Shown: one piece after another, positions 1,116-63,814 of the stretch | How positions within the stretch are numbered: position 1 is the first letter of the stretch | How the letters are laid out: every line of letters starts with the position of its first letter | Assembly (NCBI GenBank): GCA_023231475.1 | Contig: JALJEE010000596.1 | Span: 1-64,000, forward strand | Origin: Seison nebaliae | Lineage: Eukaryota | Length of the DNA stretch: 64,000 nucleotides | Direction: 5' to 3' | Notes under the pieces: model-generated | What the model saw: only the letters and a program-made list of their open reading frames with translations | What the model was told of the DNA's origin: nothing | Database searches by the model: none | Translations under genes and position numbers: made by a program

Positions 1116-2296
1116 ATGAATTTTTTCTTCTTTATACTCATCTTACCCATAACATTCAGTTTCACATATGTTCTTGACCAGCATGTGGACTGTTATGAAA
1201 TAATTTGCGATAATAACGACTATGGAACTCCGGATCCTGAACCTAGTTATCCTGAATCATTTCCGATATCTTATCCTCAACCAATCCCGAAACCATATCC
1301 ACAACCAATTCCGAAGCCTGAACTAATTCCTGTACCCATACCGCAGCCGATTCCGGTTCCTGTGCCCAAACCAATCCCAATACCTAAACCACAACCCATC
1401 CCTATACCTAGACCTTACCCAATTCCGGTTCCTAAACCACAACCCATCCATATACCTAGACCACAACCCATCCCTATACCTAGACCACATCCCATCCCTA
1501 TACCTAGACCACAACCAATTCCGGTTCCTAGACCACAACCCATTCCTATACCTAGACCACATCCAATTCCGGTTCCAAGACCACAACCAATGCCTATACC
1601 AAAACCTTATCCAATTACAATTCCTAGGCCACAGCCTATCCCAATACCTAGGCCTTATCCAATTACCGCTCCTAGACCACGACCAATTCCTATACCAAGA
1701 CCTTACCCAATTTCAATAGCAAGACCTTTCCCAGTTAGTTATCTTGAGCCAATGTCAAGACCCATGTCGTATGGTATACCATCCGAATATTTAGGACCGT
1801 CGGAAGGATATACTAGTGATTCAATAGTTTCTACTGATAGTGATGATAATTCAGGTTGGGAATTTCTTTTTTCGATATATTTACCGTTTGCGTCTATTAT
1901 AAGGTTCATTTTTTTCGAACACAAATTTTGGATATGTTAATACAGGTATTACATTATTTGTATTTCTTTTCTTATTTATTATATCTTTCAGGCGGCTATG
2001 GACCGAGTGTTATCGGCAACTACGAATCATATCATAAAGGAAATGGTGATTCCGGTAGTGGTAGCAAGGCTAGTTCCCAATCACAAGGGATGAATGTTAA
2101 TCAATATCAAGACAATGGTAGATCAAATGTTGGTGTGGGACAATCTCAGTCACAATCAGATATTACGACGAACAATAATGATCGACAATCTCAAAGTCAA
2201 GGCGCAAGTATTGAACAATCGATGGAGAATGGATATGGTGAACTGGGATTAACTCAAAGTCAAGCTCATGAAGATGATTGGAATTGGGGGTTTTAA
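1116..2296 (+). CDS. Secreted proline-rich repeat protein, 3 exons (1116-1854, 1904-1945, 1992-2296)
   Basis: Hydrophobic signal peptide [15 protein letters not shown], a long [12 protein letters not shown] repeat, then a G/S/Q/N-rich tail ending DDWNWGF. Two phase-1 introns, 1855-1903 (GTTGGG..AAG) and 1946-1991 (GTATTA..CAG), join ORFs 1116..1940 and 1856..2296 in frame. Confidence 0.75.
1275..1733 (+). repeat. Coding tandem repeat, 24-nt unit (e.g. cctagaccacaacccatccctata) encoding P-R/K-P-Q/Y/H-P-I-P-I/V
   Basis: Directly visible imperfect 24-nt/8-aa repeat, roughly 18-19 units, with variation mostly at third codon positions. Confidence 0.9.
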
Positions 2297-2985
2297 AATC
2301 CGTCCGAAATTTCATCGGGTACATGACCAAGTCAATAACTCGAAATTTTATTTAGGAGAAATAAAAAATTGAATATATTTGTATTCTGATGTAAAATGAT
2401 TCTCGTGATAAAACCGTCGGGAAATAAAGAATGAACAAAGAATCGATTAAAAATATTTTCTGAAAAAGACGATGAGAAGTAGAGTGGAAGCAACTGTACA
2501 TGGAAGAAAAGTAAAATAATGTGAATTTTCTCTAATAAGAATGTTTATTTTTCATTATTATTCAGTTCGTCTCTGTTAAGGGAGAAAACGAAATTAAAGT
2601 TGAAAAGAGTTGAAGAAAAAAAAACATCCAACATAATCTCCCATAGGTCCAACATACGTGTTTGTTTTAAATTGAAAAAAAGAATATTTGGAAGATATGG
2701 TGAAGTGGTGGAGGAGAAGGAAATAGAAAATGATATTATAAATAATAAACATAAAGAAATGAATGATGGATAGATGAAATTAAATGAAATGAAATTATCA
2801 AATGAAGATTAAAATTTTAACTAAAAAATATAATGTAAAATCTTTCTCTGAAATATGAAGGAAGAAATATGAATGAAGAAATATATTGAATCGGATAACA
2901 TGATTTATCATTCTGGAAATGGTGTGTGGACGAAACTCATGACATAAATATAGAACTGTGACATGGTGATGATAAGGTGCCATTC

Positions 2986-4242
2986 TTATTCCTTTTTCGG
3001 CATGTTCAAATCACTTCGCTTCTTCGTGATGACGTATCTTTTATAATGGTTTCCACTAAATTCACTTTCCAGTAATTGTCCGTGAGCCAAAAGGACTTTT
3101 CGTTGTTCGTCTGGTGACATCGCTAGAAATGCTCCTAAGCATGTTGGATATTCATCCGACCAAATTGTTGATGGACAGATTTTCAGAATGTTTAACACTA
3201 TATCGAAAATTTCTTGATCACCATTTCGGGATGAGATGCGGAACCAATCACAGAGTGCTGGTACTATCGCTTTCAATGGTGCTCGACTACCATCATAAAA
3301 TTCAATGTATACGGTAAAACTAGAATTCTCTACATTTCCATCTTGTAAATTCTGATCACGATGAACGACAGAAATCGATCGTAAACGATCGAAAATAAAA
3401 TCGCGACATGATTTCTGGAGATTTGTTATTTCGAATTCTTCAGCTAATTCCATCATTGGTGTGACATTGTCGGATGAGAGTACCAATTGAAATTGTGGAT
3501 AGATATGTCGAAGTAATTGCATAATATCTTCGAGCCTATTATAAAATTTAAATTAATTAATAATAATTAATATTAATTGAAATTAAATTTAAATTCAAAC
3601 CGTTTGGTTTCCAAGTTTAACGTGTTGTCCTTCACGTCCTTCAATGTATTGTGGAGGATCGGACTAGCGGCACTTAATATTGCTTTGTTGACGTAAAGTT
3701 CTTTACCATTGGAAACGATTAATTTCAGATCACAAAATGCATCTGGTTTCGAGAAGTATGTGTCTGCGATATCGGACTGATTGCTCTCCACACCAATCTC
3801 TTCCGTTCTCGCGCTCTGATCATTGTCGAATGCACTCACCGTATGACGTGATCGTTTTGCGAAACTTGGAGTTGATTTTTTAATATCTTTCGATATGTCT
3901 TCAACTTCTCCTTGTTCCTTACCTATAAAAGTTGAGATTATAAGAATTAATAATTGTTAATCATAACGAGATATTAAAAGAAAAACAAATTTAAACACGA
4001 AAAACTGAAATTTTAGTACAAAGAAAAAACGTTGTTACAAAGCAAACAATGAATGAATGAATGAATGAATGAAAAGAAAGAATTGAAAAACAGATGACAA
4101 ACTGGGAGGATTTACTAATGAATTATCGGTAGTTTTTTTCGATTCTGAGAATGAATAAAAGAAAGAATTGAATATGGGAGAAAGTGGAAGGAAGTAAACT
4201 GGGTTGACCTCGAGTGGAGCGAATGCGTTCACCCGATTCCAT
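2986..4242 (-). CDS. BTB/POZ-domain protein, 4 exons (4242-4200, 4144-4103, 3922-3601, 3535-2986)
   Basis: Spliced BTB motif FCDLKLIVSNGKELYVNKAILSAASPILHNTL..KR/LEDIMQLLRHIYP..DNVTPMMELAEEFEITNLQKSCRDFI. Introns 4199-4145, 4102-3923 and 3600-3536 are all GTT..AG and in phase. The two 5' exons are less certain. Confidence 0.8.
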
Positions 4243-17954: not shown

Positions 17955-17984
17955 ATCATCATCATCATCATCATCATCATCATC
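17955..17984. repeat. (ATC)n microsatellite
   Basis: About 10 perfect ATC units. Confidence 0.9.
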
Positions 17985-22588: not shown

Positions 22589-24794
22589 TTAGATCAACTT
22601 ACATGCATCGATATTGTATTGATTGCTCACCATTTGGATTAATCTCGTCGCTAACATCAATTTGTCTTGAGGATTCGAGTCCAATTGATTGATATTATTC
22701 AACAAGATATTCAGTTTCCGTTTCAATTCGTCTGGTTGAAATTCTAATTTCTCATAATTGATCTTGTGAAGATACATCTCCATCTCATTTTCATTTGACT
22801 GGTCATTTTTATTCTGTTCCTGTTGTTCATTTTGTTGTTGCTGTTGTTGTTGTTGTTTGAGAAATGTTTGAAGAAGTAACGTCTTACTATCTAATAGATC
22901 GGCGTCGACATTGTGAGAAGTTTGGGGAGAATCGAGAGACATATTTATCAACGAATTCGATCCATTCGACGATATTTTCCTTTTCATATATTTGTCATTA
23001 TCATTTCCTGATATGATGTCATCGATCGTTGAGAGTTTTCGACGTTTGGAACATTGTTCATCTGATTTCAATGACGAGAGTTCACTATTCTCAACATCGT
23101 CCACTTCTTCGCTGGTCAATTCGCTAGTCGACGTTTGATTTCCATTCGATTGTTTATTGATTGTATCAGGTGTTCGTCGATAATCGGAAATATTTGTTGA
23201 TTTATCATTCGAATTATTCTTCGTTTGTGAATCGTAGATGGCTGATACAATATTCTTCAAATAACTTATGAGATTATTAGAGAGATTTCCTTCGTTATTA
23301 TTCTGATTATTATTAGGAAAATTCAAATTCAATTGATTGGCAATATTTTGAGTGTTTTGTGTGGGAATTGTTTCTCGAGTCGAATCGTTTAATTGTTCGG
23401 AGAAGGTTTTCTCATTTTTCAATAATTGTAATTTTCTAATTATGTCTAACGGATTTACCGATTGTTTCGATTGCTTATTCTGATTTACTAAAATATTCTG
23501 AATGTTCGTCAACGGATCATTGACATTTGAATTATCATAATCATTAGACATCGAGAATTTCGAATCATCATTGTTATTATTATTATTATTATTGATCGAT
23601 CCAATACCAGAATTATTATTATTATTATTGTTATTATTGTTATTGAAAGTCGTGTCGAACGATTGTAAGTTGGAGGAGGAGAAGACTTTTGGTAAAATTG
23701 ATGAAATATTTAAACCGGAATTGTACGAATTTAATTGATTTTGCATCGTCAATAATGATGGTATGAGACTCTTCAGATCATCCAAATTTCCATTATCTGA
23801 ATTATTATTTCCATTCATAATATTATCGTTATTATTGTTATTGTTAGTATTGTCACTTTCCAACTTCCATTTTTCACGTAATGGTTTCCTGCCACGTTTC
23901 TTTCTTGCAGGTTCGTTCCCTAATCGATTGGATGGAGAAGAATTACCGTTATTCGACGATTTTTCTGTACTTTCTTTCTTGGAACTTTTCGGTTTAGCAA
24001 TTCTTAATGGCAGACTACTATTGGGATCGACGGTATAAATAGATTTATTCTTGACACCTTTGAATGAACCATCAGCATCAAATACGACACCTCGAGGTGC
24101 GTGTGGATGTGTATCGTGTAAATTCTCAATTTCTCCATTTGAATTTACTGTCAATCTTCCATGACAAAATCGTACGACGCATACCCAATAAGTTCTTTCT
24201 CCTTGTAACTTCTCTCGACGATATCGATGTTTCTGATAAATTAGATGTTCATTTCCTTTAGTACTCAAAAGGAAAAAATAGTCTCGTCCTTTTGGGAAAT
24301 AAGGATAATTTCTTTGATCAATCGGAAGGAGTGGCGGTAATGTCGTCGAATTATCTTGATGTCGATGTTGAATAATTTTCTTATTTAATTCGATATTTCC
24401 TTTCAATATCTCTTTATGGTTCGCGGGAACTTCTGAATATTTCATATTTTCCGATTCATTTTCACTTTTCAATTTCTCAATTGTCGTCGATGAGATGTCG
24501 TTATCAGAATTATAGAATAATTTCGCCGTTTCTGTCACAACGGGCAAATATTCTCCATAGCCATTCTCATTTGATGGTAAATTTAATGACGAATTCTTCG
24601 TACCATTCTGTTCGACACAATTGTCATTCTGAAAAAGAAAAACAAAATTAATAATTTCTTTTCTCAAAAAATTTTTATTTCAATAAAATTGTTTCATAAT
24701 TTCAATGAGAGTCTCATAAAATTTAATTGATTTTTATTAGACGAACCTTCATTGTAGTATTGTCATTTGATATGTCATTTGCATTTGTCTCCAT
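22589..24794 (-). CDS. FLYWCH zinc-finger protein with AT-hook-like motif, 2 exons (24794-24747, 24628-22589)
   Basis: FLLSTKGNEHLIYQKHRYRREK..TYWVCVVRFCHGRLTV..HPH, followed by ARKKRGRKP, with poly-N/Q tracts. A 16-codon first exon METNANDISNDNTTMK is joined by phase-0 intron 24746-24629 (GTTCGT..CAG). Confidence 0.8.
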
Positions 24795-27700
24795 AGTGCG
24801 AGAATCGAAAACGTTTTCTTAAGAGATCTAAAGCAAAAAGCACTTGACTCTTTAAATAATCTTAATAGAATAATTCTGAGATATGGCAAGAGAATAATCG
24901 AACGAATAATTTATAGAGTTTTGAAAAGTCAAAGGAAATTAGAAACGATTTATCAGCGAGATATTTTACGGTTAATTGTGATTGAATTCATAAAAAAACT
25001 CTCTAACGATTATGACGATTCAGTTTGGTCAATTCTAATTTAGAAAAGGAAATTGACAACAATAACCATAACGGATTGTTATTGAGCGAAACAGTTTCAA
25101 CATAGAGTTGAAAATGAAGGATGACGAATAAGATACAGCCATGAAACTTCTACTTGTTCGTGTACTACATAGAAATTTCAGTTCATTTAATGTTCTAGTT
25201 AATATAATTCGTATGTTTCAGATTGAAAAATAAAACGTAAAAAAATGTCTTAAATTAATTTTTCTTCTTTTTTGACAATGTTCAATTTTTTGTTGAATAA
25301 AAATTAAAATTGAAAATAATTAAGAATTTCAAAGTGTTCTCCTTAATTGAGCGCAAAGGAGATAGATGAGTGGACGAACTGGAAAAGAACGTCAAAAGGA
25401 AATCTGAAGGACGCCGATGATTTCATTTGAAAAATGAAGTTAAATGAAAGATGATTATTATTACGAAATTTTATGCCTAAACATCACAAAATCTGGTCAG
25501 AAGAACATGGATGAAAGTGAAGGGATTTGACTATATTGTATTTGTGACATATTCGTTAAGATAATGTTGAATAAGATTTTCGAGATTTATAGCAAATGAG
25601 GATTAGGAAAAAGGAGTAAACTGAAATTTGAAATCTTATTTAAGACGTGCTAAAGAAATAGTGTGAATTGATTCATAGATGAAATAATAAGATTTCTTGT
25701 TACTTGTTTCGGTATAAGGAGAGAGAAATTAAGTAGAATATATGTTGATTAGAAGATCTTAGTGAAAAAAGGAACGAATGTCAATGTTGGTAGTCGAATT
25801 CATTGATAGAGTCATATCAAGAGTAGCAACGAAGGAAAGTTGTTTAGAGGTAAATATCGCGCATAAATCGCTATTGGAGAGAGGTAAGAATAATAGATTC
25901 GAATGGAAATAGTCGATAGTTGACGCGAGGGAACTTATAATTGCCTCAAAATTTTTAAGAGACGCGCAAGCGGCGTTCATAAGAGCGGAAATGTGACCTT
26001 CGGAAAAATGAATTAAATGACTGAAAGAAACATAAGGCTACATAATAATATTTCCGCGAATAAAGGGAGAAGGAAAAGCATTATTAAGTATACAATCCAT
26101 CCAGTCAACATATATACATATATATACCGAAACTTAAAAGAATTTATACAATTCGAAAAGATAAAGCCCAAACGTCTTACCTTGTTTCATTGAAAACAAT
26201 CGCGAATAAGAGATCCCTATGAGATAATATATTAAAAATATATGATCGAGAATTACATTTCGATAAATTTTCTAATGTTGAATGAATGGACAGAGGCGAA
26301 AAAGACGCAATTCATCGTTATCTCATCAAATATTCGCATTGACAACTCCTTACTTGTGTCATTACACAACAATCGAAGGTGATATGATAGGAGAGGAAAA
26401 ATTATCTTAACCTTTTCTTCCTCTCAGCTTGCCGAAGTTGATGATAACTTTCTGATTAACGAAGAAAGGGAGAGAAAGGTAGTTGAGTAAGAAAGATATG
26501 AAAGATTGGGATGATAGTTTTTTGAAGTTAGCATTTTGCTTGATAGTTAGAACGATGGAAAGAATGGGAAGGAAGAAAATCGTATGGAAAGTAGAACGGT
26601 CGTGCAAAAACAACTGAAACGTTCTCGATAAAGATGAAGGCGAAAGAGAGAATGATTTCATTTATCGTTTCGAATGGCGCACGTTGGATTGCTGCGTCTA
26701 AATTACGATCATTATTATTCTACCCATCTTCCAAAGAGATAGGCGGAGATAATACTTAGTTAACTGACGACAGGCAGAGCCTGTAGATGATGTTCGCAAT
26801 TTTTTCGATTTAATGCACGCACGTTGAATGGCAGTTGTCAGAGTTGATGGGTAGAAGTGAGAGGAGAATATGTGAGGGAGATAAATGGATTGTTAACATT
26901 CGATGCATGTCATGGATCTAGCATTAATCTCCAATGTACTGTCACTTGATAAGTTTTTTTTGAAATGTACAAGAAATGAATGAGGAATCGTTAACTGATG
27001 ATATCTTGTAAAGTGTACCGTGAAAATGAAGGTTTGTGCTAAATTTCAATTTAACTGCATAGAAGTGGAATGAAATAATTCTTATTCCATGAATAATTTG
27101 TTATGCAGATATCGGAAACGGATTTGTTATGCTTATCACGTAGTTGAGAAATCTTGCTTCTTGAATTTCATGTGAACGCGTTGCCACTTTCTTCTTCATT
27201 TCTTCTTCTTATGTTATAATGCCATTTCGTTTTGTTTCTGCTCCTTTTTTTCTCTTTCTCTCTCTCTCCATTCCCAAGTCTAGTCTACATATCCACAAGT
27301 AATGAGAATTTGCTATATTTATTTTCGATAAGGTTAGAGATAGACGGAAGATGGATGGAATCTGTCAGAGGAGGGGAGAGAATATGATGAAATTAACATG
27401 ATGCGTTAGTGTTGATAAGCGTGCAATTGCGCGTGTAGGCAATGCGGTGCTACTGGTAATATAAGAGTCTTCATACAGCAAGAACGAATCGTAAAGAAAG
27501 ATTGAATCAGACGTATGGATGTTTACACACAATTATCTGCACAGCATGCAACGCATTATTTATCATCGTTCCAAATGTATGTTTCAGGAAGCGTGATAAG
27601 TTCACATTTATTTTTCTTCCAAATCAATTCAATCTACACAATGGAATTCAGTTCCACTTGTTGTTGATGAGGGAAATATCGATAAAATCGGACGAAAACG

Positions 27701-29639: not shown

Positions 29640-29976
29640 TTAGAATCCATGCATTCCATGAAAGAATTGCATTGCATGTGCAACTTTCTGACAATCATCT
29701 GTTGTTCGATTAGATTGCATACAACGTCGGAAAGTGTACCAAAATAAATTTTCGCTCAACTTCCCATCGGTGGATGTTCGTTTCTTAAACAAAGATTGCG
29801 GTTCGTCATTGTCATCGAGAAGATCTGTTTCGAATGCATTTGGTAACTATAATGGAATAAAAATAATAAAAATGAATTTAAAGAATATTGAAATTAACAA
29901 TTGCCGCAGAATAAATGAAAGTAATTTGACTTAAGAGCATTATTGAGATGTATAATAGAAACAAGGATGATTTCAT
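29640..29976 (-). CDS. 94-aa secreted neuropeptide/peptide-hormone-like precursor, 2 exons (29976-29899, 29846-29640)
   Basis: MKSSLFLLYISIMLLSQITFIYSAAI/LPNAFETDLLDDNDEPQSLF-KKR-TSTDGKLSENLFWYTFRRCMQSNRTTDDCQKVAHAMQFFHGMHGF*. It has a signal peptide, an acidic spacer, a KKR site and a two-Cys peptide. The 52-nt intron 29898-29847 is GTTAAT..TAG. Not in the ORF track. Confidence 0.75.
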
Positions 29977-33400: not shown

Positions 33401-36400
33401 AAATAGATAAAAATGAAGAGAAAGTAACTTGTAATTTTAGAATAAATTAATTCATCGAACTTTCTGGGTTTGGTAATCGAACGACTGAATTGATCTAATA
33501 CTAAGCATTTTGCTGCTGGTATTTCTAAGTATAAGACGGCCGAATAAAGTGGAATTAATTGTTCGTTCTTCAATTTAATTGGCAACATATAAAAATAGTC
33601 AGCAATTATTGAAAATATTTTTGCGCCGCCAGGAAATTTTTGTATGCGAACTACTTCTTTCATGTCATTTTCCATTCCGTCATTCTTCTCCGTTTTTCTC
33701 ACTGCTTCTTCAGTTATATCGATCTCTTGTTGGAATAATCGACTGAATTCTTTCAACGGTTTCTTGTGTAAATGAAAAATTTCATTATCAATCTCAATCT
33801 CGATATCTGACCGATCTCCATTACTTACAATAATCTTTTCCTCTAATAAATCTTCTGGTGTCAAGTCACGTGACTTATTTTCAACGATCGTTTTTGTGGC
33901 TGAATGAGAAATCTCTAAATTTAATTCTGTTGGTATTTCTTCTAAATCTTTCGGAGATATCACTGTTGAAGTTGATCGATAACAAGGCGAATTAGTTTCA
34001 CTCTGATTCGTTAGGCAACTGGCCGTACCAGACGTACTTGGTGATTTTGTGCCATTATCTTTTGGAATCTGTTGAAAATTGGTTTCGATATCGATTAACT
34101 GATTTTTATCGATACTCTCCATCGACAATTCGGATAATATTCCCAAACTTTCGTTTTCCTCTTAAATGAGAGAAGAATAAAAAGATTTTTTATTGTTCTC
34201 CCAATGGAGGAAAAGGCGGAGAAGAAGAAACTATAAAAACCGTTCGATATTTCCGACTGTTGTGACAACGACTTTATTAATATTGGAGATTGCTCTTCCT
34301 TATTTGGCGAGATATATTTATCAATACGAATATTCTGCGGTTCCTGATAACGGCGTATGAGATGAATGAAAGAGAAATATAATTTATATTAAAAATAAGT
34401 TTGGGGGAGAATTTAGATTGTTTTTGGGTTAGAAGTGTTGATCTTTTCGATGAGAGAAAGAAAAGAAGAATTATTTCCTAAAAGAAATGTTATGCTATGT
34501 AAAGAATTCATAAGAATTAATTGTGTGATCGTTCAACACGAAAGTTTTATACTATCTACATGTGGTACATATGAATGGACGAGATGCGACTGCATCTTGC
34601 CCGTGTAAGAGAACTATAGACGATTAATTAATAGCCGAATGTTACGAATCTTTTTAAATTCTTCTCACTTCTCATTTACATGAATAACAAGTTAATGTTT
34701 TGATTTTGAGAAAGATGGTAAATTTATTGAGCACTAATCAGCTTCTATTCATGGATAAGTTAGAAGAATTTACCGTCAAGTTCCTTGAAAACAATTCGAT
34801 GGACGAGAGAAAAATTCGTTTTTTCCAAAAAAGTTTTTTAAAGTTAATGAAAATGAGTTAATGGAAATATATTTGGGAGAACGTAATGGAGAATAAAGTT
34901 GAGATTTGTAGCAATTTGTGAAAGCGAAAGATAATTTGGAAATAGAAAAAATAATTTTTGAGAATATTTTCTATCCGCTCCAACTAGTTTTACATAGATA
35001 GAAAAATGAAAAATTAATGGAAGATATGAGACAGAATATACACCAGTGGCATGTAGGAAATGTAAGTAGAAGGATGTTTTTTTTCGTGAAAGTTATTCGG
35101 GTACATGTTATTCAGCTAAGATTGAACATGTATACATACAAATCACAATACTATGTAGATATGATATCATTCATTTAGAATATTGTGATGATGGCAACGA
35201 CATTGACACTAGAATAATAGATGAGGAAAAGGTAGAGGAATATCGTTTTAGAAGAACAAGAAAAATTATTATCTCATGAAAATTATTCTTATAAATAATA
35301 ATAAAAATTGACAATCAAATAGATTTCTCCTTTTTACAACTTCATCGACAACGTTCCAAAGTTCGAAGGGAATATGCACTTACAGATATTATATAAGTGG
35401 AAGTTAACTGATCATTTGTCATTCTATTTAGTCCAATATGATGAATAAATATGAATAATTCTTTGGGAAAATCATCAACACATTTTATTGATTGGTGATC
35501 GACGGAATCACTATCATATCACATCCAAACACAAAATATATATTTCTCATTCTAATATTAATCATTATTTTTCTATCAATCAATCATTTCCGTTCTTTTT
35601 TCCCATTATTCAGATCAATAAAAAAATTACTTTACTAACATGAGCTTCATTCGATTCCATCGAATTTCCTTTCAAAAACGAATTGTCATTCGACCATGAA
35701 TCGTTTAACTGTTTCGGATATTCCACCACCTGACTCACATGGGAAGCATATTTGTCCTCTCCATTCATTTGACGTAAACAATCATAACTTTTACTGTGTA
35801 GTGGCATCTCTTCTCGTGAATAATGATGATGAGATTGATTGTCGTTATCAGTCTCTTCTAATTTGGATTCTAACCGAACATTTCTCGAGGAATAAGGTCG
35901 ATTCGAACTCGACGAACGATCACGTCTCGGAGAGATTGAACAGAACGTCTTCCATACCGAACCATAAACCGAATGATTTTGCTCGTTCATATTTCTTGTC
36001 AACGGACGACTACGAGATGATTCGACAACTCGTTTCGTCTGATTATAATTGACGGATGGAATGTCTATTAATTTTTGTTTGTGAATTTTTGGAGCGGAAA
36101 ATAATTTCACGGACGATGAATCTGGTTTGACTTGATAGCGATTTAGAGAAGAAGATGAAGATGAACTTCGGCCGTAATTCGAGACGGATTCCAACGATTT
36201 ATTTTCAAAACTTTTCGATGGTAAACGATTAATATTCTTTCCATTTGTCTTATGTGGGAACATGGTCAATTGTAATCGACGTCTCCATCTCCAACTCCAG
36301 GAGGGAAGCATCCAAGCTGGACTGATTCCATCAATTTCATTATTCTGATTATATGTGATATCTTCGAAATCGATCATATTTTTATGATTTCTTCTTGGTA

Positions 36401-38984
36401 CGTTTTCGTCTTTCTGATTTATATCAACTGAACGACTTCGAGGCTCTACTAATTGTTGTATTTGTTGAGGGGAACTCCTATTTTTTTCTTCACGTTCCGT
36501 TAAATAACTATTTGGAGATGGTAGGAATCTTTTGTTGAAATTGAACGTCGAATTGACGATCATATTCTCGTTTTGCTCGTTTCGATCATTCGACCAATTT
36601 GTTGGTTTTTCCTGATAGGAACAGCATTCCGTATCATCGATTTGTAATTTATTCATTTCATAATTCCTCATAATTGAACAATCAATATTGTTATTCCGAT
36701 TCTTTAATATTCCCTTACGTGATTGAGGTGGAGTGTTAAATACGACTCTGGGACGAGACATATCGTTTTTGTTTTCGAAATACTTCGTGGAGAATAATAG
36801 TCCCGCTGTATTGCTATACCTAAAATAAAAGAAGAGATGGATGAGAATGATGAATGATTACTGGAAGAAGAAAAAAACGGAATTTCTTTTCTTTTAATAA
36901 AAACGTAAAATTCAATCGGTAAATATGAGAAGAAAAAATAGAAAAGACGATGGGACATTTGAAAATGATTCAAATAATTTATTTAAGTATTATTTAAAGA
37001 AAGATAAATTTTAATTAATTCCAAATTTATTGGATTAAATAAAGGTCGGTGGATAATTTAATACTGGAATTCTATTGGAACTCAAATGTTAATGACGATT
37101 GACATTGGTAATGACTTCAATAAAGTTGCTTCATCTTTTAAGAATCGATGTGAAGTTACATGAAATGAATTGTTAAATTTTAATCTATTCTCAAATTCAT
37201 CATAAACGCCTTAAAGGTTGGAGAAATGAACTAATGACAAATAGTTTAATTTCTGTCATGCATCATCTTATCAAGGTGAAATGGAACGTAGAATTGTTGG
37301 CTAATAAAAAAGACGAGAAAAAGATTAAGGTGAAAAGGAACATGATTCTTCTCGAAAACGAGTAAGAATAATAACGATCATTGACATTATTATTATATGA
37401 CCATTGGCATTGTCGATTTATGAGGTTCGAACGAAATGAAGAAGAGGAGAAGAAATTTAACGATAAATTTTAAGGAATTCATCATCATGACTCGATCAAA
37501 TTTCAACTTTCTTTCCATCTGTTTATTAGTGGGATTATCGGTGATGGAAATTGCAATATGGGGTGTAGTTATGTCTATGTTTATCTAACGTCGTTGGTGT
37601 TTGTTGCGGCAACAAGAGCGGCAATTTTCTTAACAAAACTAAATCATAACGAAGGCTACAACACACCATATATGTCGATAAGAACGATATATTTGCATTC
37701 AGTTGATTAATTCACATCGGATGAAAGACATTGGATCTGCTAAATACTCCCCGTTGTGTTGAGTTTGGTTCATTTTATTTTTTGTCATTCATAAGCCAAA
37801 CAGCAATTCAAGGATTTCTTTTGTAAGTAACAGGAACCATGGAACTGCCAGATAATTATAACGTGGGATAATATTGATATAAAGTCGACGAACAAAAAAA
37901 ATCGTCGAATAACTTGTGATAATTATGCTTTCTTCCTTCCAATTGATAAAATAACTATGATGGGAATGATGATGATGATGAAATCATTTCCGTAATTCAT
38001 TCTAACTCTATTCTATTCCAAATAGAGTTTTTCAATTCAATATTTTACTTACAATTTTCTTCATCAATCTCGTCAATATGGTTCATCAAATTATCTTCAT
38101 CAGAACATACCAACAAACAATCTTTATGAGGAGATGAAACTAAAAACGAAATGAGGAGACCGATCGTCTACCAATATCATAGTAATGATAATACATAATA
38201 GCGACTGCCCTCGCTTGATTGTTGTTTGACTGCGACTGAAATTAATACAATTAAATCATTCCTGATAACTTGTTTTATTTTCGATATGAAACAATAATAA
38301 TAGTAATAGTAACGATGATTAAGTGATTGAGAGAAAGAGGAAATTATACGATGGAATAATTCATGTACTACTCGCTCCACAAATCTTTTAATTAATTGAA
38401 TTTATATTATAATATATTCTTTTTATCTTCCACAATAAACATATCTTGATATAAGTCAGATATCTGATATTTTCCATCTCATTACAATAATAAAAAAACG
38501 AATATTTTATTTCATTTTATTAACCTTCTACCAATTGGCGATGTTAATCTTTCAAATGTTCGCAAATCGTCAACCGTTTTAATAAACATTGATTTCCCAT
38601 CAGAATCAACTGGATTACTAAAAAAGAAATTGATATTTCTTATTCGAAATATTCTCACACTAACTCATCCGACACATCTCGGAAATTATTGAGGGAATAT
38701 GATGTAGGTACGAATTGATCGAAATCATCACTATGGTTTTCTTCATTCTCTTCGATAAACAATTCACAATTGTTTTCGTTCATTATTTGAAGTTCACCTA
38801 ATAATTCAACAAGATAAATTCAAACTTTATTTATTTGAATTTTAAAAAAATTGTAGAAACCTTTTTCTCGAATTTTTAAGAAATCATCATTGGAATAAGT
38901 CAATTGATTTTGTTTAAATGGATATAGATAATTGTCGATGATGTGTGATTTTTTGAAACGCTTAATGAATCCTTTCTTTCCCAT
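30493..38984 (-). CDS. Large BTB + NPH3-like domain protein, 15 predicted exons
   Basis: Introns 38860-38798, 38664-38618, 38524-36820, 35639-34344, 34240-34161, 33428-33384, 33238-33173, 32768-32718, 32600-32546, 32189-32143, 32033-31992, 31938-31890, 31696-31636 and 31122-30855 are all GTT..AG and in phase. BTB: SDIEIEIDNEIFHLHKKPL..FPGGAKIFSIIADYFY..LYSAVLYLEI. NPH3-like: LIVSHYIREIT..HDALLLGINRYLNKNHYRLTSIQRDNLLKQVDFQRVS..IPFSMLLQGALAECKRL. The link to exons upstream of 36820 is tentative. Confidence 0.7.
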
Positions 38985-41320: not shown

Positions 41321-42974
41321 TCAGGGAGTTTTCTTATATTTCTTTAATTTTTCATTCCATTGATAAACTAATAGTCCACCTTCAGTCTGATTAGCCACCA
41401 ATAGGAAATTTTCAAACACACCAATAGTTCCCACCTGGAAACCACAGCCGATACTCTGAATCACTTGGATTGGCATCGAACGTCCATAGATGAATATTCG
41501 TTTCTGTGTTGCAAATATGAGATGAGATTTAGTGGCTTCGAACGCAACAATTTTAGTGCGTTCTGGTTGAGCGAATCTCATTTCTTGGATTACCCAACTA
41601 TTTTCCGCTTTCTCTTCTTTTTCCTTTTCTTCCTTATTTGTATTCGACTTTGTATTACGACTAAATCGATATGTTCGATTGGCATCATCAATTATCAGAT
41701 AATGAATGGACTTATCATTCGTCGGATAGGATAATCGTCTAATGGATTTGGGTGAGCAATTGGTTGGACTCATATCTACACATTTGACACTTTGACCATT
41801 CGTATAATTTAGCCACTGAACCCGGTTATTATACTTGTCAGCAACCAGAAGAACGTCACTCGTTAGGAATGGAGCAATTGATGCAGCCATATAATATTCA
41901 CCGAATTGTGCACCAATTTTATTTGCCATCTTTCTAACTAAATTCCCGTTCAACTCATGAATATAAATTCCAGGTTGTTTGTTGTCACATTCACAAATGA
42001 AAAGTAAATTCTGATAAATTGTCATATCATGAATGTCTGAGTAACAGGTTTTGATCCAATCTGAATCGAACAAATATTTCCGTTTCTTTCCTTCAGAAAT
42101 TTTCCAACAAAAAACTTTCGTCGATGTTCCCGTAATTATTCCTTTGTTGAACATACAAATATATTTCCATTTCATCTTATTCACTTCCACGTCGTCAAAT
42201 ATTATCCTTCTCCGATTCACCAATAGTTGTCCCACATTATTCTTCTCATCTTCAGATATTTCACTCGTATTTTTATTCTTTATTTTCTCTACACTCTTCA
42301 TCAAATGATTAGCGACATCTTCCATTTCCACCTTAAACTTTTCCGGCAATATAGGAATATCCGTTTTCAAAAGGAAATTTGTGGAATTTTTAATTTCTTC
42401 AGTCAACAAATTGATAATTCGATGAAACTGTTTCAAGATCTCTTCAGCATTGTTATCTCCCTCCAATTTCATTTCATCCTTTTTATTGAAAAATGTATAA
42501 AAGGCTTTCTGTTTCACATTCAACATCTGCGTTTGCACTCGCTCCAAATCATTTTTCACCGTCATCGCCGTTTTCCTAATTCGAAAAATAGTTTTAAACA
42601 AATTTTAAAAAATGTCTTAATTGAAACTCATATTTGATACATTTACCGAGATCTTCACTTTGTTTATTAAATAATTTATTGATTGTACATAACGCGTGAT
42701 TATAATTCTTTCGGAAATCCTCCAACACACTGTTCCTCTTTGCTAAACGAACTTTTAGATTTGATAATAATTTTATTTATCTAAATAACATTGAAATAAG
42801 AAGAAAACTTTGAGCTTCATTCACTTTTGAATCGGTCAATATCTTCGAAATTAATTGTTGTTGTTTTGTCGCTGCCGTTTCTAGATGATAATAGAAATCT
42901 TGAATTGTTTCAAAAGTTCCCGCGCAGTGATCGCAATGATGTTCCACTGAAGATGTGATGATTGTGTTATCCAT
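41321..42974 (-). CDS. Protein with N-terminal CxxC/His zinc-finger-like motif, coiled coil and C-terminal NHL-like beta-propeller; 3 exons (42974-42809, 42751-42628, 42575-41321)
   Basis: CDHCAGTFETIQDFYYH, a helical middle region, and blade-like repeats LLFICECDN..IYIHELNG and VLLVADKYNNRVQWL. Introns 42808-42752 (GTTTTC..AAAAG) and 42627-42576 (GTTTCA..TAG). Confidence 0.65.
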
Positions 42975-43235: not shown

Positions 43236-44170
43236 ATGAGTTCTCAAAATACCATCAGATCTTCCAAATTGTCACCGATTGGTACAAGTTTCCTTCTAAT
43301 AAATTTTAGTTCTTATGCAATATTAAATTCTTTAGGAAAAGAATCGAGTAAATCGAATCGTCATGAAAATTCGAATCATTCTAAAAGAAGTTAAATTTAA
43401 TATTCTTTTATTATGAAATTACTAAATTTTTAATGTAGTGGGAATAGAAAAATTTAGGAGAGACAAAAAGGATAAACCAAGATGTTTAATTTATTAACTA
43501 GTTTTTAATGTCTTAATTTGTCTTTCAGTTTCTGATGGAAATAAAAAAGATATTCAACTAAAACTAGATAAATTTGCAAGTTTTCAACAATTCAGCGTTG
43601 AAGAAAGAATAATTTTTGAATAAATTCAGAATCTGTTGAAGATCTTCGTGATGTGCCGAGATTAAGTGTTTCAATGAATTCCCCAAGAAATAGTCTCGAT
43701 ATCGATTTGAAAAAGTTTTCTTGTTTTTCAAAAAAATTTTAACTTTAATTTGATTAATCATTCTAAAAGAAAGATCGATTACACAAACAAAGGTTATCAT
43801 AACCAATTGACGGATAAATATGAGAATGAACTAGTTTAATTAAAATTAAAGGTAAATTAACTTTCTTTTATAAAAAGGAGCAACAACCTCGTGCAACTCT
43901 GAATAGAATTAGCATAAGTGAAGTTTGTTCCTCAATTTCATTATTTTAATAATAATATTTAAGAGTGTTGATCATTTAAATCGTCCACGCTCGTTAGCAG
44001 GAATGCCTTCATTGGAGCACACTGAATGGATCACCGGATTTAGAAATGTTAGTTAATTTCTTCTATTAGTCTAATTCGTCTAATAATAAATTAATCGATT
44101 TTACTATCTACGAAATTAGTCGTTACAACAAAGGTTTACTGAAGAGAATATAATAAAACCGAAAAAATAG
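43236..44170 (+). CDS. 176-aa basic hypothetical protein from 9 small exons (43236-43287, 43336-43389, 43439-43483, 43529-43579, 43630-43714, 43770-43833, 43878-43922, 43964-44047, 44120-44170)
   Basis: Eight GTT..AG introns of 41-72 nt give an uninterrupted ATG-to-TAG frame of 531 nt: MSSQNTIRSSKLSPIGTRKESSKSNRHENSNHSKRMGIEKFRRDKKDKPRFSDG..RPRSLAGMPSLEHTEWITGFRNSLQQRFTEENIIKPKK. Not in the ORF track. Confidence 0.65.
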
Positions 44171-47242: not shown

Positions 47243-49708
47243 CTTTCTTAAAAATTTGTCTAATCCGATTAAAGATTGTTGTGAGACGTTGATGTCCGTG
47301 ATTCTTCTTTTTCTGTCCGTTGCACTTCTTCGCCAAATGTGTCAAATCAGATTTTGAAGGACGAAAAAATGTTGTTGCTTTCGTGCACGTCTGCAGTTGA
47401 ATCGATGTGTTACTCTCGTTCAATCGTTGAATGAGTCGATTGCGTTTCATGTTTTGTAGTTTAGTAAATGATTTCGATTTGTTCATTTGGAATTCGTCGT
47501 CTTTCCATTTCTGATGAGTGACACGCATTAATTCCGTTGTATACAAGAACATGTTTATACGTAATTGTTTAACAATTCCTGCGAGTAGTTCATCGATATT
47601 ACTATGTAAAGCAGCTGATGTTTCAATCATTTTACAATTATATGACTTCGATAATAACCTCACATCTATTAATTATTAATTAATATTATTATATAATTAA
47701 TTATATAAATTATAAATTTAATTTGAATTTAAAATACAAACCATCTAAACGGACTTGACGAGTGCGAACGAGATCACTTTTATTCCCAACGAGAATTATT
47801 GGTTTATATGAATTCTTCTCCTGTTCTCTCAATCGACGAACGGTATCAGCACATAAACTATAAGTGTATTCGTCAGATATCGCATAAACGAGAACGATGG
47901 CAGCGAATCCATTTGCACCAACATCGCCATCAGAAAAATTATCATTATTTAATGATGCTGTTGTCGTTATCGTCGTTATCGGAGTAGTAGTTGTAGCTGT
48001 TTCTATTAGATCATTCTCATTCAACGATCTTCTAATTCTTTCGATATCTAAATTTTTCGTACCGATTCCCCGATTAACTATCTTCTGTACATGATCGATA
48101 CTCTAACGGATTTAACGGGAAAATAAAACCGATATTCGAAAAACGATAAAAAAAATTGAGAAGTTAAAAGGAGAAAAGAAATTAACAGATGTATCGAGTA
48201 TATCAAAATAAGTATATCTCAGATATGATGGTGAGTTGTCCAATAGAACATGAACTTCATTACAATCAGTTTCAGCTAATAAAATAAATGAAAACTTTAG
48301 ATGAATTGATAAAAATATTCCAACTTATAGAACTTCGAAGTATATATGTGCCACGATATTCACTCGTTTGAAATTGTTTGCCAATTGACGATTTGCCAAC
48401 ACCTGGGAAACCGGCGAATAAGATATCATAATTCTCAATCTTCTCTAACGGATCATCGACATCTAATGATGAAGTCATTTGATCCGTACTCAAATTGGTA
48501 GTGACGGTTGTGATACTTTGATTGGGATAATTATTATTTTGTGTTGAAGCAGAAATTTTCTTTACCGTTTCCTTCGATGTTCCCTTATATTTCATGAGTT
48601 GTTGATGTCTCAATGAGAGTTCGGATTCCGGACGATTTTGTAAACTGAATTTTCTCGGCAATGTTGATTGACGTTGAAGAGCATGGATTCGTTGAGAACC
48701 ATTTCTAATTAATCGTTGACTAGTTGATAAGATTGAATCAGTCTTCTTATGATGGTTCAATTGAGCGTTTGGTGGTAATCTGCGTAAACTTCTAGAAGAT
48801 GAATATTTACTGCTCATCTTCTTTCTTGATGATCGGTTCTTGAAAGAATCGCCTCTGTTTATAATTCCAGAATTTCCAGAAGAATTGAAATTTCTTGTCA
48901 GAATCCAATCGTTCGTATTTCCACTAATGAGTGTGTTCGTGAGATTTGTATCGAACCTTGGAACTGGAACATTAATACTATTCTTCTTTTTCTTATTCCT
49001 CTTATGATTGGAGTGAGTCTGGAGATGTTGCTTTCCATTAGCATGCTCTCCCAATATATTGATATTGCTGTTCGACAGATTCGCATCATTAATCATGTTC
49101 GATAACGATTTTCTCATAGGCAAACTATCACTTCTCTTCTCTCGTCGCCATGAGAAGGATAATGATGATGCTGATGATCTTGGAGAATGTTTCCGAATAG
49201 TTTCATCATTATCTTTCATCATTTCATGATTTATTCTATCGTTTTTGAAAGATGATGAGGATGAATCATTTTGATGACGCTTCATACTTCGTCGAGATTT
49301 CGTCGAACATGTACGAATGAGAATTTGGGGATCGCCCAAACATTTAGTGGAGAATAATAATCTCCTTTCTTCCGCACTCAACAAATAAGCAGGATTCCGT
49401 CTTACATACTTCCCATCATTCTCGATGTAATTGTCCGGATGCTGATTATCTGTTGGTTCGACTATCATGTTTTTCTTCTTCTTCTTTATATTATGAGAAT
49501 CTTTCATTAACTCTTGTCCATAATTTGTGGGAGATTCGTCTTCCATTTCCAATCGTGTCGAACCATCACCATTGCGATGATATAAAGAAATGTTATTGAT
49601 AATTCCATTTGCATTCTCGTTGTCATACTCTTCTATGAAAATTTTTGGATTATTATTATAATTATTGTTCTTGTTATTGTTGTGATAAGTCATGTTTAAT
49701 TCATACAT
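47184..49708 (-). CDS. RGK-family (Rad/Gem/Rem) small GTPase with long N-terminal extension; 4 exons (49708-48325, 48275-48187, 48102-47742, 47665-47184)
   Basis: GIINRGDSF, GFPGVGKSSIGKQFQTSEY, IVLVYAISD, PIILVGNKSDLVRTRQV and KMIETSAALHSNIDELLAGIVKQLR. Introns 48324-48276, 48186-48103 and 47741-47666 are all GTT..TAG. Confidence 0.85.
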
Positions 49709-53847: not shown

Positions 53848-53872
53848 GATAATGAATGAAATGAAATAAACT

Positions 53873-53913
53873 CTGAAGAATAGAAAGAAAAAATAAATGA
53901 AATTATATTTAAA
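53873..53913 (-). other. Unpaired 3' splice acceptor (U-rich tract + TTCTTCAG) in the 66-nt DTWD2-FEN1 spacer; candidate trans-splice site
   Basis: The minus strand after the DTWD2 stop reads tttaaatataatttcatttatttttttctttctattcttcAG, then 25 nt to the FEN1 ATG. There is no GT between the stop and the AG. Confidence 0.4.
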
Positions 53914-55342: not shown

Positions 55343-58293
55343 ATGGCTTTCAATTGGGTATATGATCGTATGAAATCCATGATTTCCATGGATGATACAA
55401 GAAAACGGTCATCGTCAGATGGTTTAAGTTCAGAAGACACTTCCAATTGGACCTTCGATCATACTACCAATTTACATCAGAATAAAAGAATGAGAAAAAT
55501 GATTGAACAAAATGAGAATGTCGTTTTCACAAAAGAACAATCGATATTTAATCGAAAGGATGGAAAATTCATGATCGACGGTGAAGTTCCATCATTCAAT
55601 TTTAATAATTCAACTCTCGATCAGAAAACGTCAACATTTATTGATTCGCCACGAAGATTTAACGTTGTTGGTAGACGACAAATTCCATCAAGTGAATTGA
55701 AAGAACGAGTGAAGCAATCAGATTCTTCACTTTCATTCGAAAACGGTCATTTTAAAATTGATGAGAAAAAAAAAATATCAAAACCATCATTCAATGAATT
55801 CTGGGAGAATAAAAATATGATAAGAAAATTCGCCCACAAACCAATTAATCTTCCCAAACCCAAAAACATTTCGAGCGAAACGAAAATTGTATTTAATGAA
55901 ATTTTGGTGGATGATGGAAAATTGATAGATGACGAAATAATTATAGAGAAACCAATCAGGAAGAAACGTCCGTTAGATGATGACAGTGAACATAAAACAT
56001 TCAAAAATAGTGGTTGTCAAACCATCAATGAATCGACCACAACAGAATCATCAATCCGTCGATCGCCAAATAAGAAGAAATTGAAAAAGAATAAAATGTT
56101 CGATTGGATCGATAATAAGACGAGAGAGAATCTTCTTCGATTGAAAAAGTTAAATGAGAAGAATTTGGATATATTTTGGAAGAAAATGGAAGAGAAAAAA
56201 TCCACTGAAGAAAAAGATTTACCCAAATCTGATGATCTCGTTAAATTCAATCAAATTTCAGAGAATTCTCTCAAAAAGAAAAACGTTCGACATTTATTTC
56301 AATATTTCTCTTAATCATTTTCTTTTTTAGAACGACGAAGTTGATAACAAAGTTAAAAAAGCGAATGAAATAGAAAAAGAAAAAAAAGTTTTTTTTTAAA
56401 ATAATTTTTAAAATTAAGTTTTTTTCCAGACAAATTCCACATCTCTTCCATCACTCTCGGAATTGTTTGGAAAGAAAGACGGTTGGGAATGTAGTTCGTG
56501 TCTCATATTCAACAAAGAATCCGCCACTTCTTGCGCTTCATGTGAAACGAAAAGAGAAACGGTTTTAAATTTTATTTGAGGAAAATTAATTAACTTTCTT
56601 TCATCAGAAATCTCCAGTAAAAGATTTGAAAAGAAAAGGAAAGAATGATGAAGAATTTATTGATATAATTCATTTGGAAGAACCGAAAGTGAATGAAAAG
56701 CCAAAGAAAGTGAATGATTCATCGAAAATTCAATTTGGAAATGTGAGTAAATCGCCATCAGTAAATTTCACGAAATTATTCGAAACTTCTTCCAATAAAT
56801 CGTTGAATGATATGAAAGAGAATAATTCGATGAATGAGTTCGACGATTCCGGTAACGATAATTTGGGATCGTTGAAAAAAAGAGTTTCTTTCAATCTGAA
56901 TGCGAATACTGTGAAGATTATTAGCGACGAGAAGACCCAGAAATCGAAATTAACAATTGTGTCAAATGGACGAGATGATAATTCTCAAAAATTATATGGA
57001 AATTCTACGACTTCATCGTCGTCTTTATTTCTGTTCACTCCTTCAAATTCTATTAATGCCACTTCTGAACAAACATTATCAAATACTAGTAACAATTTTC
57101 AATTGAAAACATCAGAGAATGAAGAGAAAAAAGGATTATTCACATTTAAAATGAACAATACTCCTATCGATCAGATACCTCTCACGAAAACAACGACGGA
57201 ATCACAACCGATGAAAATTTCATTATTTGGAGATCTGTTGAAAAGGAATGACACATCTAAAGATTCGAAAGAGCAACAAAAGACAATTGACAATCCGAAA
57301 TCAGTTGTTGATACTGTTTTTCGTAATACCGGTTTGACACAACCTCCACCACTTTTTGGTGAATTGTTCAAAAGTCAAAATTCCACAACTACACCATCGA
57401 ACGGAGGAAATACGATATTCAAATTTTCTGGTGGTGATAATTCGAAAAAATTATTCAATTTTACTGGAGATTCCAATTCTGCCACCACAATAAATGGTGG
57501 AACATCATCATTATTTTCATCAATATCTTCAACAGGACAATCATCATTATTTCCCCCAACACAATCATCAAATCAATCGACTATATTTCCGTCGATAAAA
57601 TCATCAAATACAACGATGTTATTTGCTCCAACAATATCATCATCATCATCGTCATTAGGTCAATTACCTAAATTTGGACAAAGTACTCCATCAGATAAAT
57701 CGACATTATTTTCATCCGTATTGTCTGGTGGTCCGTCATCATTATTTTCATCAACATTTACTACTACTTCTTCGTTGATGTTCCCTCCAACAGCAACCAC
57801 ATCTCAACCATCTTTATTCTCATCGATATCAATCTCTACAAAGTCATCAATATTTCCATCATCAACCATCACTCAAGCATCATTATTTCCATCAGCATCA
57901 ACCACAGCTCATTCACTCTTTCCTCCAACCAAATCATCTGGTCAATCGTCGTTGTTTGGACAAAGTACATCATCAGGTCAATCGTTATTTAATTTCAAAT
58001 TTCAAACAGATTCGGAAACGTCCAAAACGTCGTCTTTCTCTTTATTTTCAAAATCATCCACCGAAACATCGAATTCGACCAATACAACAAATACGATTTT
58101 CTCAGGATTCTCATCAGCTGGTGGTTTCTCGTCGCCTTTTGCCGCTAATACTCCGAATCTCGACCAGAATCCAAATAATTCTCCTTTTCCTTCGATCGCT
58201 AATGCTGCTAATTTCAGCACTCCACAAATGGGAAATGTTCAATCGAATATGTTCAATCCGAGAAGTACGAAGAGACGAAACCGGAAATTTTAA
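55343..58293 (+). CDS. Nup153-like FG nucleoporin with a RanBP2-type zinc finger; 4 exons (55343-56284, 56331-56387, 56430-56561, 56608-58293)
   Basis: Exon 3 encodes WECSSCLIFNKESATSCASCETKR. The C-terminal half is S/T-rich with SLF/FG/FxF repeats and ends in a basic tail RSTKRRNRKF. Introns 56285-56330, 56388-56429 and 56562-56607 are all phase 0, GTT..AG. Confidence 0.7.
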
Positions 58294-61517: not shown

Positions 61518-61531
61518 GTAACCATGACAAT
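61518..61531. promoter_or_regulatory. Candidate RFX X-box upstream of CLUAP1
   Basis: GTAACCATGACAAT has one mismatch to the consensus and lies 45 nt before the ATG of an intraflagellar transport gene, a class known to be RFX targets. Confidence 0.5.
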
Positions 61532-61576
61532 TTTTTATTATGATTTAATTATATTTCATTGAATTCAGTGATAACG

Positions 61577-63814
61577 ATGTCATATCGAGATATTCGAAGT
61601 TATTATCATTTCCATCATTTTCATCCGATTATCATGCTAATTAGATTTTTGCGAGATGACCAGGTTGTTAGGTTACGACCGAATAATATCCATGGAGAAC
61701 TTTAAGAAACCGAATTTTGGACTAGTCGCTGAAATTCTCCAATGGTTAATGAAACGGTTTTTACATTTTATAAAACGGAATTGAACAAATAAAAAACAAA
61801 TTAAACAGATTCGATAGCACAACTGATATTCCATTAGATATTAATTCGGAGCAAGATCGTGTGGCTTTTATCAAAGCCGTTGCTCAATTCATGGCAGCGA
61901 AACAACATATTAAACTGAACACGAAGAAATTATATCAAGCTGACGGTTATGCGGTGAAAGAATTATTGAAAATGACAACGGTCTTGTATGACGCTTATTT
62001 GCAAAACAAAGAAATGTTGAAAGATGATACAATGGCAGACGATGAGATGATGATGGCAGACAGTACTCTAATTCAAAATACGAATGCTCAAATTGAGGAA
62101 TTAAAAAATGCGAGACAACTCGCTGGTACGATAACGGAAAAAGGAGCAAATCTTTTCGAATTATTAGAACAAGAAGTAGATCTGAGAGTTCATAAAAATC
62201 TTAATCTTCTCACTAAGCCACTCTCTTTATGTATACGTAGGAAATAAGAACAAAAGTTCTCAATAAGAATTATGATACGAAAAATGTTCAGAAATATATC
62301 AGAGAAGCTGGAACTATGATCGAAGTTTTCTACTTATTCGATCTATAAAAAATCTAAATAAATTTTTAATAATTCATAGAAAGAGAATGAAAAGACTCAG
62401 AATATGCTGAATAGTATCAAAACAGACGAGAATGGTCTTGATCAGAAGATCGAGAAGAAAAGAGCCGAATATGAGAGAAGACAAAAGAAATTAGGAACAT
62501 TAAAAGTTCTCAGGTTTGAAAATTATTTTTATCCAAATTCTATCGGAAATTAACATTAAAAAAAGACCGGCTTATATGGATGAATATTTAGTATTGGAGA
62601 AAGAGTTGGAGAAGGTGTATGAGGAGTATCTTGTGAAATTTCGAATACAAACCTATTTGGAGCAACAATTACATGAAATGAATAAAGAAGACCAAAGAAA
62701 CTTTGAGGTTTAACTTTGAACTTTGAACGAAATTCATTTTGTTTTGTGTTTCTGATATTTTTCTTATTTTATAATTTCATAATTTTTGTTCATTAATCTT
62801 TGAAAGACGATGAAAGAAACAAGACAAGAATTATTAAAGAAACGAATTGATGATCAAGTCATAAATGATCTGAATGAGTTCGATGAAGAAGATGAAATTA
62901 ATTCTTTGAGTTTCGTTTCTTTTCCTTTTAGTTTATATAGAAATTACTTAAGTTTATCATATAATTTAGTTGATATTATCAGAATAATTTAAATAGTTTA
63001 GAAATTTAACAATTATTCTTCGAATTTTAGGGAGATAAAATAGGACCGTTTTCCAATTACATGGCAGATACAGTAAATGTTTTTGCAGGTGAACCACATT
63101 TCTTAAGCTGAACCGAATTATTATTACAACTATATCTTTCTTATAATTTTTCTTTTTTCTCTGAAGGCGATTCTCAGGAACCGGATATGGCTGACGTCGA
63201 AATAGATGAAAACGGAAGATTAATGGGTTACTTTTTTATAATGTGAAATTTATTGAGGAAATGTGAAAAAAATAGTGTTACCAGAAGTTGGTTTCCACGA
63301 ATATGATACAGATAAGAAAGATAGGAAATTAATAGCCGATCTAATGAAAGTTCAAGGTTAAAATGAAGATAATTATTGAGAATAATTTGGACGAATATCT
63401 CACTTAGATAAGAATTTCCCAGAGAATGATCATGAAATAACGACTAGCGACACGACCGACCAGAATTTCGATGATACAAATGGATTAGAAGAACGAGTTA
63501 AAGTCGCAGCTGCTAATAATAATCCGATTGAGACTAAATTATCCGGATCCGAATTAATTGATCATGAAACTGGTGTTAATCCGTTCGCCGGATTACATGA
63601 TGATGATGATTTATTTAGTAACGTGAAAGAAGCGACAGATATCTTGCATTCAGATAATTTGGATAATATCGATGTAGTTCATAATTTCGATCAGGAATTC
63701 GAAGAGAATATTAGTAGTAATAATCGACTATTTCAATTCAACAAGCGAAAAACAGATAATAAGCGTATACGACACATCTTTAAAGAACAATCGTATTATG
63801 ATGAAGGATTCTAA
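61577..63814 (+). CDS. CLUAP1: Clusterin-associated protein 1 / IFT38; 11 predicted exons
   Basis: [64 protein letters not shown] and RPAYMDEY. Introns 61599-61644, 61757-61808, 62188-62240, 62325-62379, 62514-62565, 62708-62806, 62915-63030, 63089-63166, 63227-63275 and 63357-63407. The acidic C-terminal exons are less certain. Confidence 0.92.

Follow-up and report, generated by a model that had tools for sequence, protein, structure and literature searches.

The introns of a 64,000-nt stretch of the Seison nebaliae genome (GCA_023231475.1, contig JALJEE010000596.1, forward-strand positions 1 to 64,000; hereafter the window) begin almost without exception with GUU. Seison is an epizoic marine rotifer (PMC8351084). 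A sequence-only reading of the window had placed 50 introns, of which 48 began with GTT, 14 had G at +5 and none was GTRAG, and had proposed a change in donor recognition. We rebuilt the intron catalogue independently and arrived at the same counts (48/50 GTT, 14/50 with +5G, 0/50 GTRAG), with a purine at +3 in 2/50; the two sets need not be identical. The donor code in the window is (A)R/GUU, where the slash marks the exon-intron boundary: +3U is nearly fixed and the exon side is purine-rich. This is a transcript-supported rewiring of donors in an intron-rich animal. The introns are short, AU-rich GT-AG introns, probably of the U2 spliceosomal type, and their misfit to GURAG lowers the consensus match, not their spliceosomal origin. 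We regard the GUU code as almost certainly real in the window, to which all donor counts refer.

GUU donors in transcripts, proteins and a blind parse

The catalogue was assembled in tiers from transcripts, deposited proteins, hidden Markov models (HMMs) of non-Seison homologues and a blind parse. For transcripts, we used the GMAP table of Trinity transcripts in Additional file 2 of PMC8351084, with 69 rows listed for contig k141_282; these were found through the FEN1 lengths, and their positions coincide with the window coordinates. Among the rows listed, at least 21 distinct gaps of 41-323 nt lay within the window; 15 are recorded as simple deletions, and the other 6 fall where one row ends and the next begins. 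Each had 1-4 sequence-equivalent placements, exactly one of which was GT-AG (21/21). The donors fixed in this way were GTT at 20 of the 21 listed junctions, the remaining one being CAG/GTG; transcript junctions are thus not mostly GTA or GTG. The blind parse had predicted 15 of them exactly, and the 7 that were absent from an earlier 43-intron catalogue, mostly untranslated or unassigned, were all GTT (7/7).

Exons of CLUAP1 (SNEBB_001186), FEN1 (SNEBB_001181) and SNEBB_001175 were a 100% match to deposited S. nebaliae proteins, and exact mapping of these proteins gave 26/28 GTT donors (CLUAP1, eight GTT, one GTG and one GTA; FEN1, 3/3; SNEBB_001175, 15/15). This tier is not independent of a gene finder. 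With HMMs built from 105 CLUAP1 and 97 FEN1 proteins, Seison left out, every in-frame join was scored (149-1175 per junction). The best GT/GC-AG join was GTT at 8/8 conserved FEN1/CLUAP1 junctions (rank 1-11 among all joins), and the two in-frame alternatives that begin with GTA fell short by 9 and 22 bits. The BTB and Ras-family introns were GTT with transcript support. The blind parse, a Viterbi parse with zero weight on +3 to +6, returned 39/42 GTT, or 39-40 GTT among 47-54 introns over five settings when two poor gene models were added.

The resulting union of 50 introns comprised 21 with transcript support, 22 from deposited proteins only and 7 from the blind parse only. Blind picks in genes with a deposited protein and a two-part parse of 1855-1991 were excluded. 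A seven-intron plus-strand model at 28960-29934 (2 GTT) was dropped because the transcript intron there lies on the minus strand, and three blind introns at 4685-4245 were dropped as unsupported. Contigs of sequencing runs X1, X2 and X3, compared over 30400-44200, contained no splice joints, and run X6 gave no match there. The X1 and X2 contigs each cover this region as a single piece identical to it in every letter, although they may be the source of the window.

T-rich introns combined with a reader's choice of donors might produce such a pattern with no special reading of GUU. Indeed, intron bodies are 47% T, the frequency of T after GT is 0.40 across window sites and 0.57 within intron bodies, and a blind parse including the two poor gene models gave only 40/50 GTT. 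However, the listed transcript junctions include untranslated or unassigned ones that lie beyond any frame-choice bias, and their 20/21 GTT has P = 1.6e-7 at 0.40 and 1.4e-4 at 0.57 (48/50, P = 4.5e-17 and 6.3e-10). Measured against the GTs competing within 25 nt of each donor, 14.2/21 and 35.3/50 were expected (P = 8.5e-4 and 4.6e-8). Moreover, +3 departs from background while +4 and +6 sit at it. This explanation is contradicted for the window, and we give it almost no credence; +3T in the window is above the intron background. The term near-universal, used in the sequence-only reading, is borne out for this 64-kb window, and we consider a genome-wide GUU code very probable.

A at +3 was seen in 1/50 donors compared with 16.7 expected from intron composition, in which A makes up a third of bases (P = 4e-8). 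Under relaxed selection in an AT-rich genome both A and U should be common at +3; the exclusion of A therefore indicates that something selects U. On the exon side, A stood at -3 in 25 and at -2 in 29 of the 50 introns, and -1 was A in 24 and G in 15 (purine 39/50; on 43 introns, P = 2e-4 for the -1 purine and 1e-3 for -2A), so the last exon base is not free to vary, a point that the sequence-only reading had missed. Position +4 (A17, U24; 23.3 U expected) was at background, as was +6 (A17, U24, G2), and +5G was enriched (4.2 expected, P = 4e-5). In total the donor holds about 6 bits of information, confined to -2 to +3. Recognition thus departs from the animal norm, as claimed, in that +3U is almost fixed, +3A excluded and +4A not preferred. 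The suggestion that donor choice rests on GUU plus intron length is incomplete, since -2A, -1R and +5G carry signal and introns of 1296 and 1705 nt also begin with GTT; the median length is 55 nt, with 35/50 within 40-66 nt.

Pairing of a canonical U1 one base out of register, as in a GUU-N-N-GU class, would show +3U as seen here. This reading needs +6G, which occurs in 2/50 donors and 0/21 listed transcript donors against 4.2 expected; the data contradict it, and its probability is negligible. There was no compensation between -1 and +5 (P 0.3-0.5), and no donor hexamer matched the U12-type motif RTATCC. In 16 kb of sense-strand transcribed sequence, 17 GTRAG motifs stay unspliced, a raw count that we do not use as support.

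Acceptors were TAG (24), CAG (16) and AAG (10), with T upstream of the AG near intron background and no clear pyrimidine tract. Some of the ten AAG acceptors follow A-runs, and reading of the 3' site may also be relaxed. A branch-motif search over 43 introns (five patterns, two ranges) gave a best uncorrected P of 0.04, with none significant after ten tests.

How the GUU donors may be read

The explanation we favour, at somewhat less than even confidence, is that +3U is read by a U1 small nuclear RNA (snRNA) in which A replaces the U opposite +3, together with relaxed reading by U6. The model is Entamoeba, where 88-90% of donors in all five species are GUUUGU, U1 carries ACAAAC instead of ACUUAC and U6 has a normal ACAGA box (bioRxiv 10.1101/2022.06.08.495308). 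Opposite +4 stand U1 position 5 and the middle A of U6 ACAGA (PMC10581693); from this register and the Entamoeba precedent, +3 would face U1 position 6 and the U6 G. For A, the best partner of canonical U1, to be excluded, U would have to gain a partner of its own, and a U-to-A change at U1 position 6 would be the simplest way to provide it. The U6-side contacts at +4 to +6 would be relaxed, probably with loss of METTL16, the writer of U6 N6-methyladenosine (m6A), and with SNRNP27 kept. U5 loop 1 would base-pair with the purines of the exon side, and the thin donor signal would be completed by definition across the short AU-rich intron.

Another possibility is a G-to-A change in the U6 ACAGA box at the base that faces +3. 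The resulting Watson-Crick pair with +3U would be just as effective in excluding A, and Cyanidioschyzon merolae has a documented ACAGA change (PMC10581693). However, the box is invariant in 240 fungal species (PMC10581693), Entamoeba (bioRxiv 10.1101/2022.06.08.495308) and Fritillaria borealis (PMC13326754), which makes this improbable.

The splicing machinery of Seison was examined in a published BUSCO table covering 11 monogononts, 11 bdelloids, 1 seisonid and 2 acanthocephalans (PMC12256650). METTL16 is scored missing in the Seisonidea column only, being complete, duplicated or (in one) fragmented in the 24 other syndermatans. Missing scores in Seison extend to U5-40K, LSm2 and SPF45, and to ZMAT5, for which both acanthocephalans share the score; PRP8, PRP6, PRP31, SNRNP27, ZMAT2 and MFAP1 are complete. 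The earlier request to inspect named proteins is thus answered in part: METTL16 is scored absent and SNRNP27 and PRP8 present, and U1C and LUC7 were not found in this table. The terms METTL16, small-nuclear and LUC7 had no match in the 2021 Seison supplements (PMC8351084), which are not gene lists. Rfam models identified no snRNA genes in the window; one tRNA was found.

Loss of METTL16 moves donor use from GURAG/+4A to sites with a strong exon side (PMC11347140), and retention of SNRNP27K has been suggested to allow +4A without METTL16 (PMC10581693), which the mixture of A and U at +4 fits. A METTL16 loss fits the missing GURAG, the missing +4A preference and the exon-side purines. In these papers, however, it is linked to +4 and not +3, so it would give no account of +3U by itself. 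Budding yeast, for comparison, keeps +3A.

A close rival to a changed U1 is that the snRNAs are unchanged: with METTL16 gone and U6 m6A lost, donors would be chosen at the U5/U6 hand-over, +3U would wobble with the G of ACAGA, and changed proteins would help. GUUUGU complements ACAGA at +2 to +6 (bioRxiv 10.1101/2022.06.08.495308), F. borealis keeps its snRNA sequences with reduced U6 m6A (PMC13326754) and in 240 fungi donor use shifted while the sequences of U1 and U6 stayed the same (PMC10581693); the METTL16 score (PMC12256650), the exon-side -2A/-1R and the residual +5G are in agreement. However, unchanged snRNAs predict +4U, +5G and +6U, whereas +4 and +6 do not depart from background and G stands at +5 in only 14/50. 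In addition, described METTL16 losses shift +4 and not +3 (PMC11347140, PMC10581693), and a wobble pair is a weak reason for the near-total exclusion of A. We consider this reading possible but doubtful.

The confinement of information to -2 to +3 would also suit recognition of GUU by a protein, through a changed surface of U1C, LUC7 or PRP8, or a U1 pairing largely bypassed on very short introns. The missing scores of U5-40K, LSm2 and SPF45 are consistent with this, but PRP8, PRP6, PRP31, ZMAT2, MFAP1 and SNRNP27 all score as complete (PMC12256650), and we think such recognition unlikely.

Several points weigh against the favoured U1 change. With +4 and +6 free, unlike in Entamoeba, the pairing of many donors with U1 would come down to 3-5 bases; there is no excess of +4U; and one transcript-supported donor is GTG though an unused GTT lies nearby. 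Since 76 BUSCOs are missing in Seison alone (PMC12256650), the single missing score for METTL16 is a lead, not proof. F. borealis shows strict conservation of the U1 5' end, the ACAGAGA box and U5 loop 1, its changes being confined to modifications (PMC13326754), and the switches at +4 in the 240 fungal species likewise left U1 and U6 sequences unchanged (PMC10581693). The U1 reading also concerns a predicted Seison U1 and draws on the donors of one window. Seison could conceivably be the first animal known to combine a rewritten U1 5' arm with METTL16 loss, a minimal (A)R/GUU code serving its intron-rich genome, but we think this rather unlikely.

Genes and introns of the window

Table 1. Introns and donor sites of the window, with the tier of evidence for each.
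Feature	Positions	Strand	Donors	Evidence
Proline-rich protein gene intron	1855..1991	+	GTTGGG	Blind parse only
BTB-domain gene (Pfam)	3536..4199	-	4199-4145 GTTTAC; 4102-3923 GTTTGT; 3600-3536 GTTTGA	Transcript
FLYWCH gene (Pfam), 5' end	24629..24946	-	24946-24876 GTTTCT; 24746-24629 GTTCGT	Transcript
Intron in transcript of unknown coding status	29847..29898	-	GTTAAT	Transcript; sole GT-AG placement is on the minus strand
SNEBB_001175 (1416 aa), 15 introns of 42-1705 nt	31005..38860	-	All GTT: 38860, 38664, 38524, 36166, 35639, 34240, 33428, 33238, 32768, 32600, 32189, 32033, 31938, 31696, 31122	Deposited protein mapped exactly
Gene without Pfam match	42576..42808	-	42808-42752 GTTTTC; 42627-42576 GTTTCA	Transcript and blind parse
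Seven introns	43390..44119	+	All GTT: 43390, 43484, 43580; 43715, 43834, 43923, 44048	First three blind parse; last four transcript
Ras-family gene (Pfam Ras)	47666..48324	-	48324-48276 GTTGGA; 48186-48103 GTTAAT; 47741-47666 GTTTGT	Transcript
FEN1 SNEBB_001181	53029..53385	-	53385-53340 GTTCGA; 53202-53139 GTTCAA; 53071-53029 GTTTAA	Transcript, deposited protein and non-Seison HMM
RanBP zinc finger gene (Pfam)	56285..56607	+	GTT: 56285, 56352, 56562	Blind parse only
CLUAP1 SNEBB_001186, ten introns	61599..63962	+	GTT: 61599, 61757, 62188, 62325, 62514, 62708, 63227, 63357	Deposited protein; first five also non-Seison HMM; 62708 and 63227 also transcript
Exception 1, CLUAP1	63089..63166	+	CAG/GTGAAC	Transcript and deposited protein
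Exception 2, CLUAP1	63765..63962	+	GTATAC	Deposited protein only

Both exceptions lie in CLUAP1. The GTG donor has an unused GTT 10 nt upstream, and at the GTA donor the open frame can alternatively be followed through to a stop at 63814. Within the 323-nt CLUAP1 intron, an open stretch at 62806-62911 (+) is positionally homologous to the CLUAP1 coiled region and may be an alternative exon; it is skipped by the deposited model and by the one transcript.

SNEBB_001175 had no spliced transcript among the rows listed. Its model contains two in-frame introns inside open frames, as well as the two long introns, and uses GTTAGT over an in-frame GTGAGA six bases further on. Over 30400-44200, low-depth contigs from runs X1-X3, about 85% alike, lie beneath the main haplotype and represent a second, divergent genotype. 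The RGK label of the Ras-family gene was that of the sequence-only reading, Pfam giving Ras, and placement of the donor at 56352 is doubtful, with another GTT about 37 nt further.

The 137-nt intron at 1855-1991, without coverage among the listed transcript rows, is made up of three GT...AG units joined end to end, 49, 42 and 46 nt long, with AG/GT after 1903 and 1945. None of the other seven introns longer than 85 nt has an internal AG/GT. Stepwise splicing and a 42-nt middle exon are both possible, and one blind parse splits the intron in two, the second part starting with GTA.

Two long low-complexity open reading frames (ORFs) with FLYWCH zinc fingers (4634-7627 and 22589-24679, minus strand) lie upstream of the same-strand BTB gene. 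Between the two FLYWCH genes, about 15 kb (7600-22200) has no convincing ORF and several unspliced transcript matches. At 52370-54882 (-), a single assembled transcript spans a DTW-domain gene and FEN1, 66 nt apart, and one isoform retains the first FEN1 intron; this could reflect read-through, operon-like transcription or an assembly join.

Comparison with known donor systems

The match of donor, U1 and U6 belongs to the best-conserved codes of animals, and descriptions of its strict rewiring come mainly from intron-poor protists and yeasts. A fixed +3U and the exclusion of the ancestral A in an intron-rich animal would show that large numbers of donors can shift in step with their machinery. 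If METTL16 is truly gone, Seison would be a natural animal knockout of U6 m6A. Standard splice models may mis-call genes in S. nebaliae. We found no publication on the Seison donor consensus or on a GUU-dominated animal in a search that left subscription journals and bioRxiv supplements outside, and the intron, splicing and snRNA passages of PMC8351084 hold no splice-site analysis. A metagenome scan with a bdelloid FEN1 as query gave 80 loci, with identities of up to 71%, and for none of them was the bdelloid or the Seison protein the nearest; two had a GTAAGC donor and four gaps held no convincing intron. A search with the Ras-family exon among representatives gave 29 weak matches and no Seison protein.

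The animal donor norm is GURAG (PMC11347140, PMC11732430), and it is this norm with which we compare the Seison donors. As in Entamoeba, the introns of Seison are GT-AG, U occupies +3 in nearly every donor and the GURAG form is lost. Unlike Entamoeba, which is intron-poor with a strict motif of 6-7 bases, Seison is intron-rich and only +3 is fixed, +4 and +6 being free; the full GUUUGU motif is not dominant (+4U 24, +5G 14 and +6U 24 of 50). The switches from +4A to +4U in Saccharomycotina, with loss of METTL16 or SNRNP27K (PMC10581693), resemble Seison in the METTL16 score and the lack of a +4A preference. In contrast, the Seison change is at +3 with no excess of +4U, SNRNP27 scores as present and the genes are rich in introns.

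Fritillaria borealis (PMC13326754) is likewise an animal with rewired donor choice, there at genome scale, in which U6 m6A is implicated. However, 95% of its introns break GT-AG and it keeps METTL16 along with its snRNA sequences, whereas Seison keeps GT-AG and has tightened +3. Finally, exon-side purines and weak +4 to +6 liken Seison donors to the AG//GU (U5-class) sites of humans, plants and nematodes (PMC11732430, PMC11347140). There, AG//GU is one of two classes; in Seison, GURAG is absent (0/50), A outnumbers G at -1, and +3 carries U.

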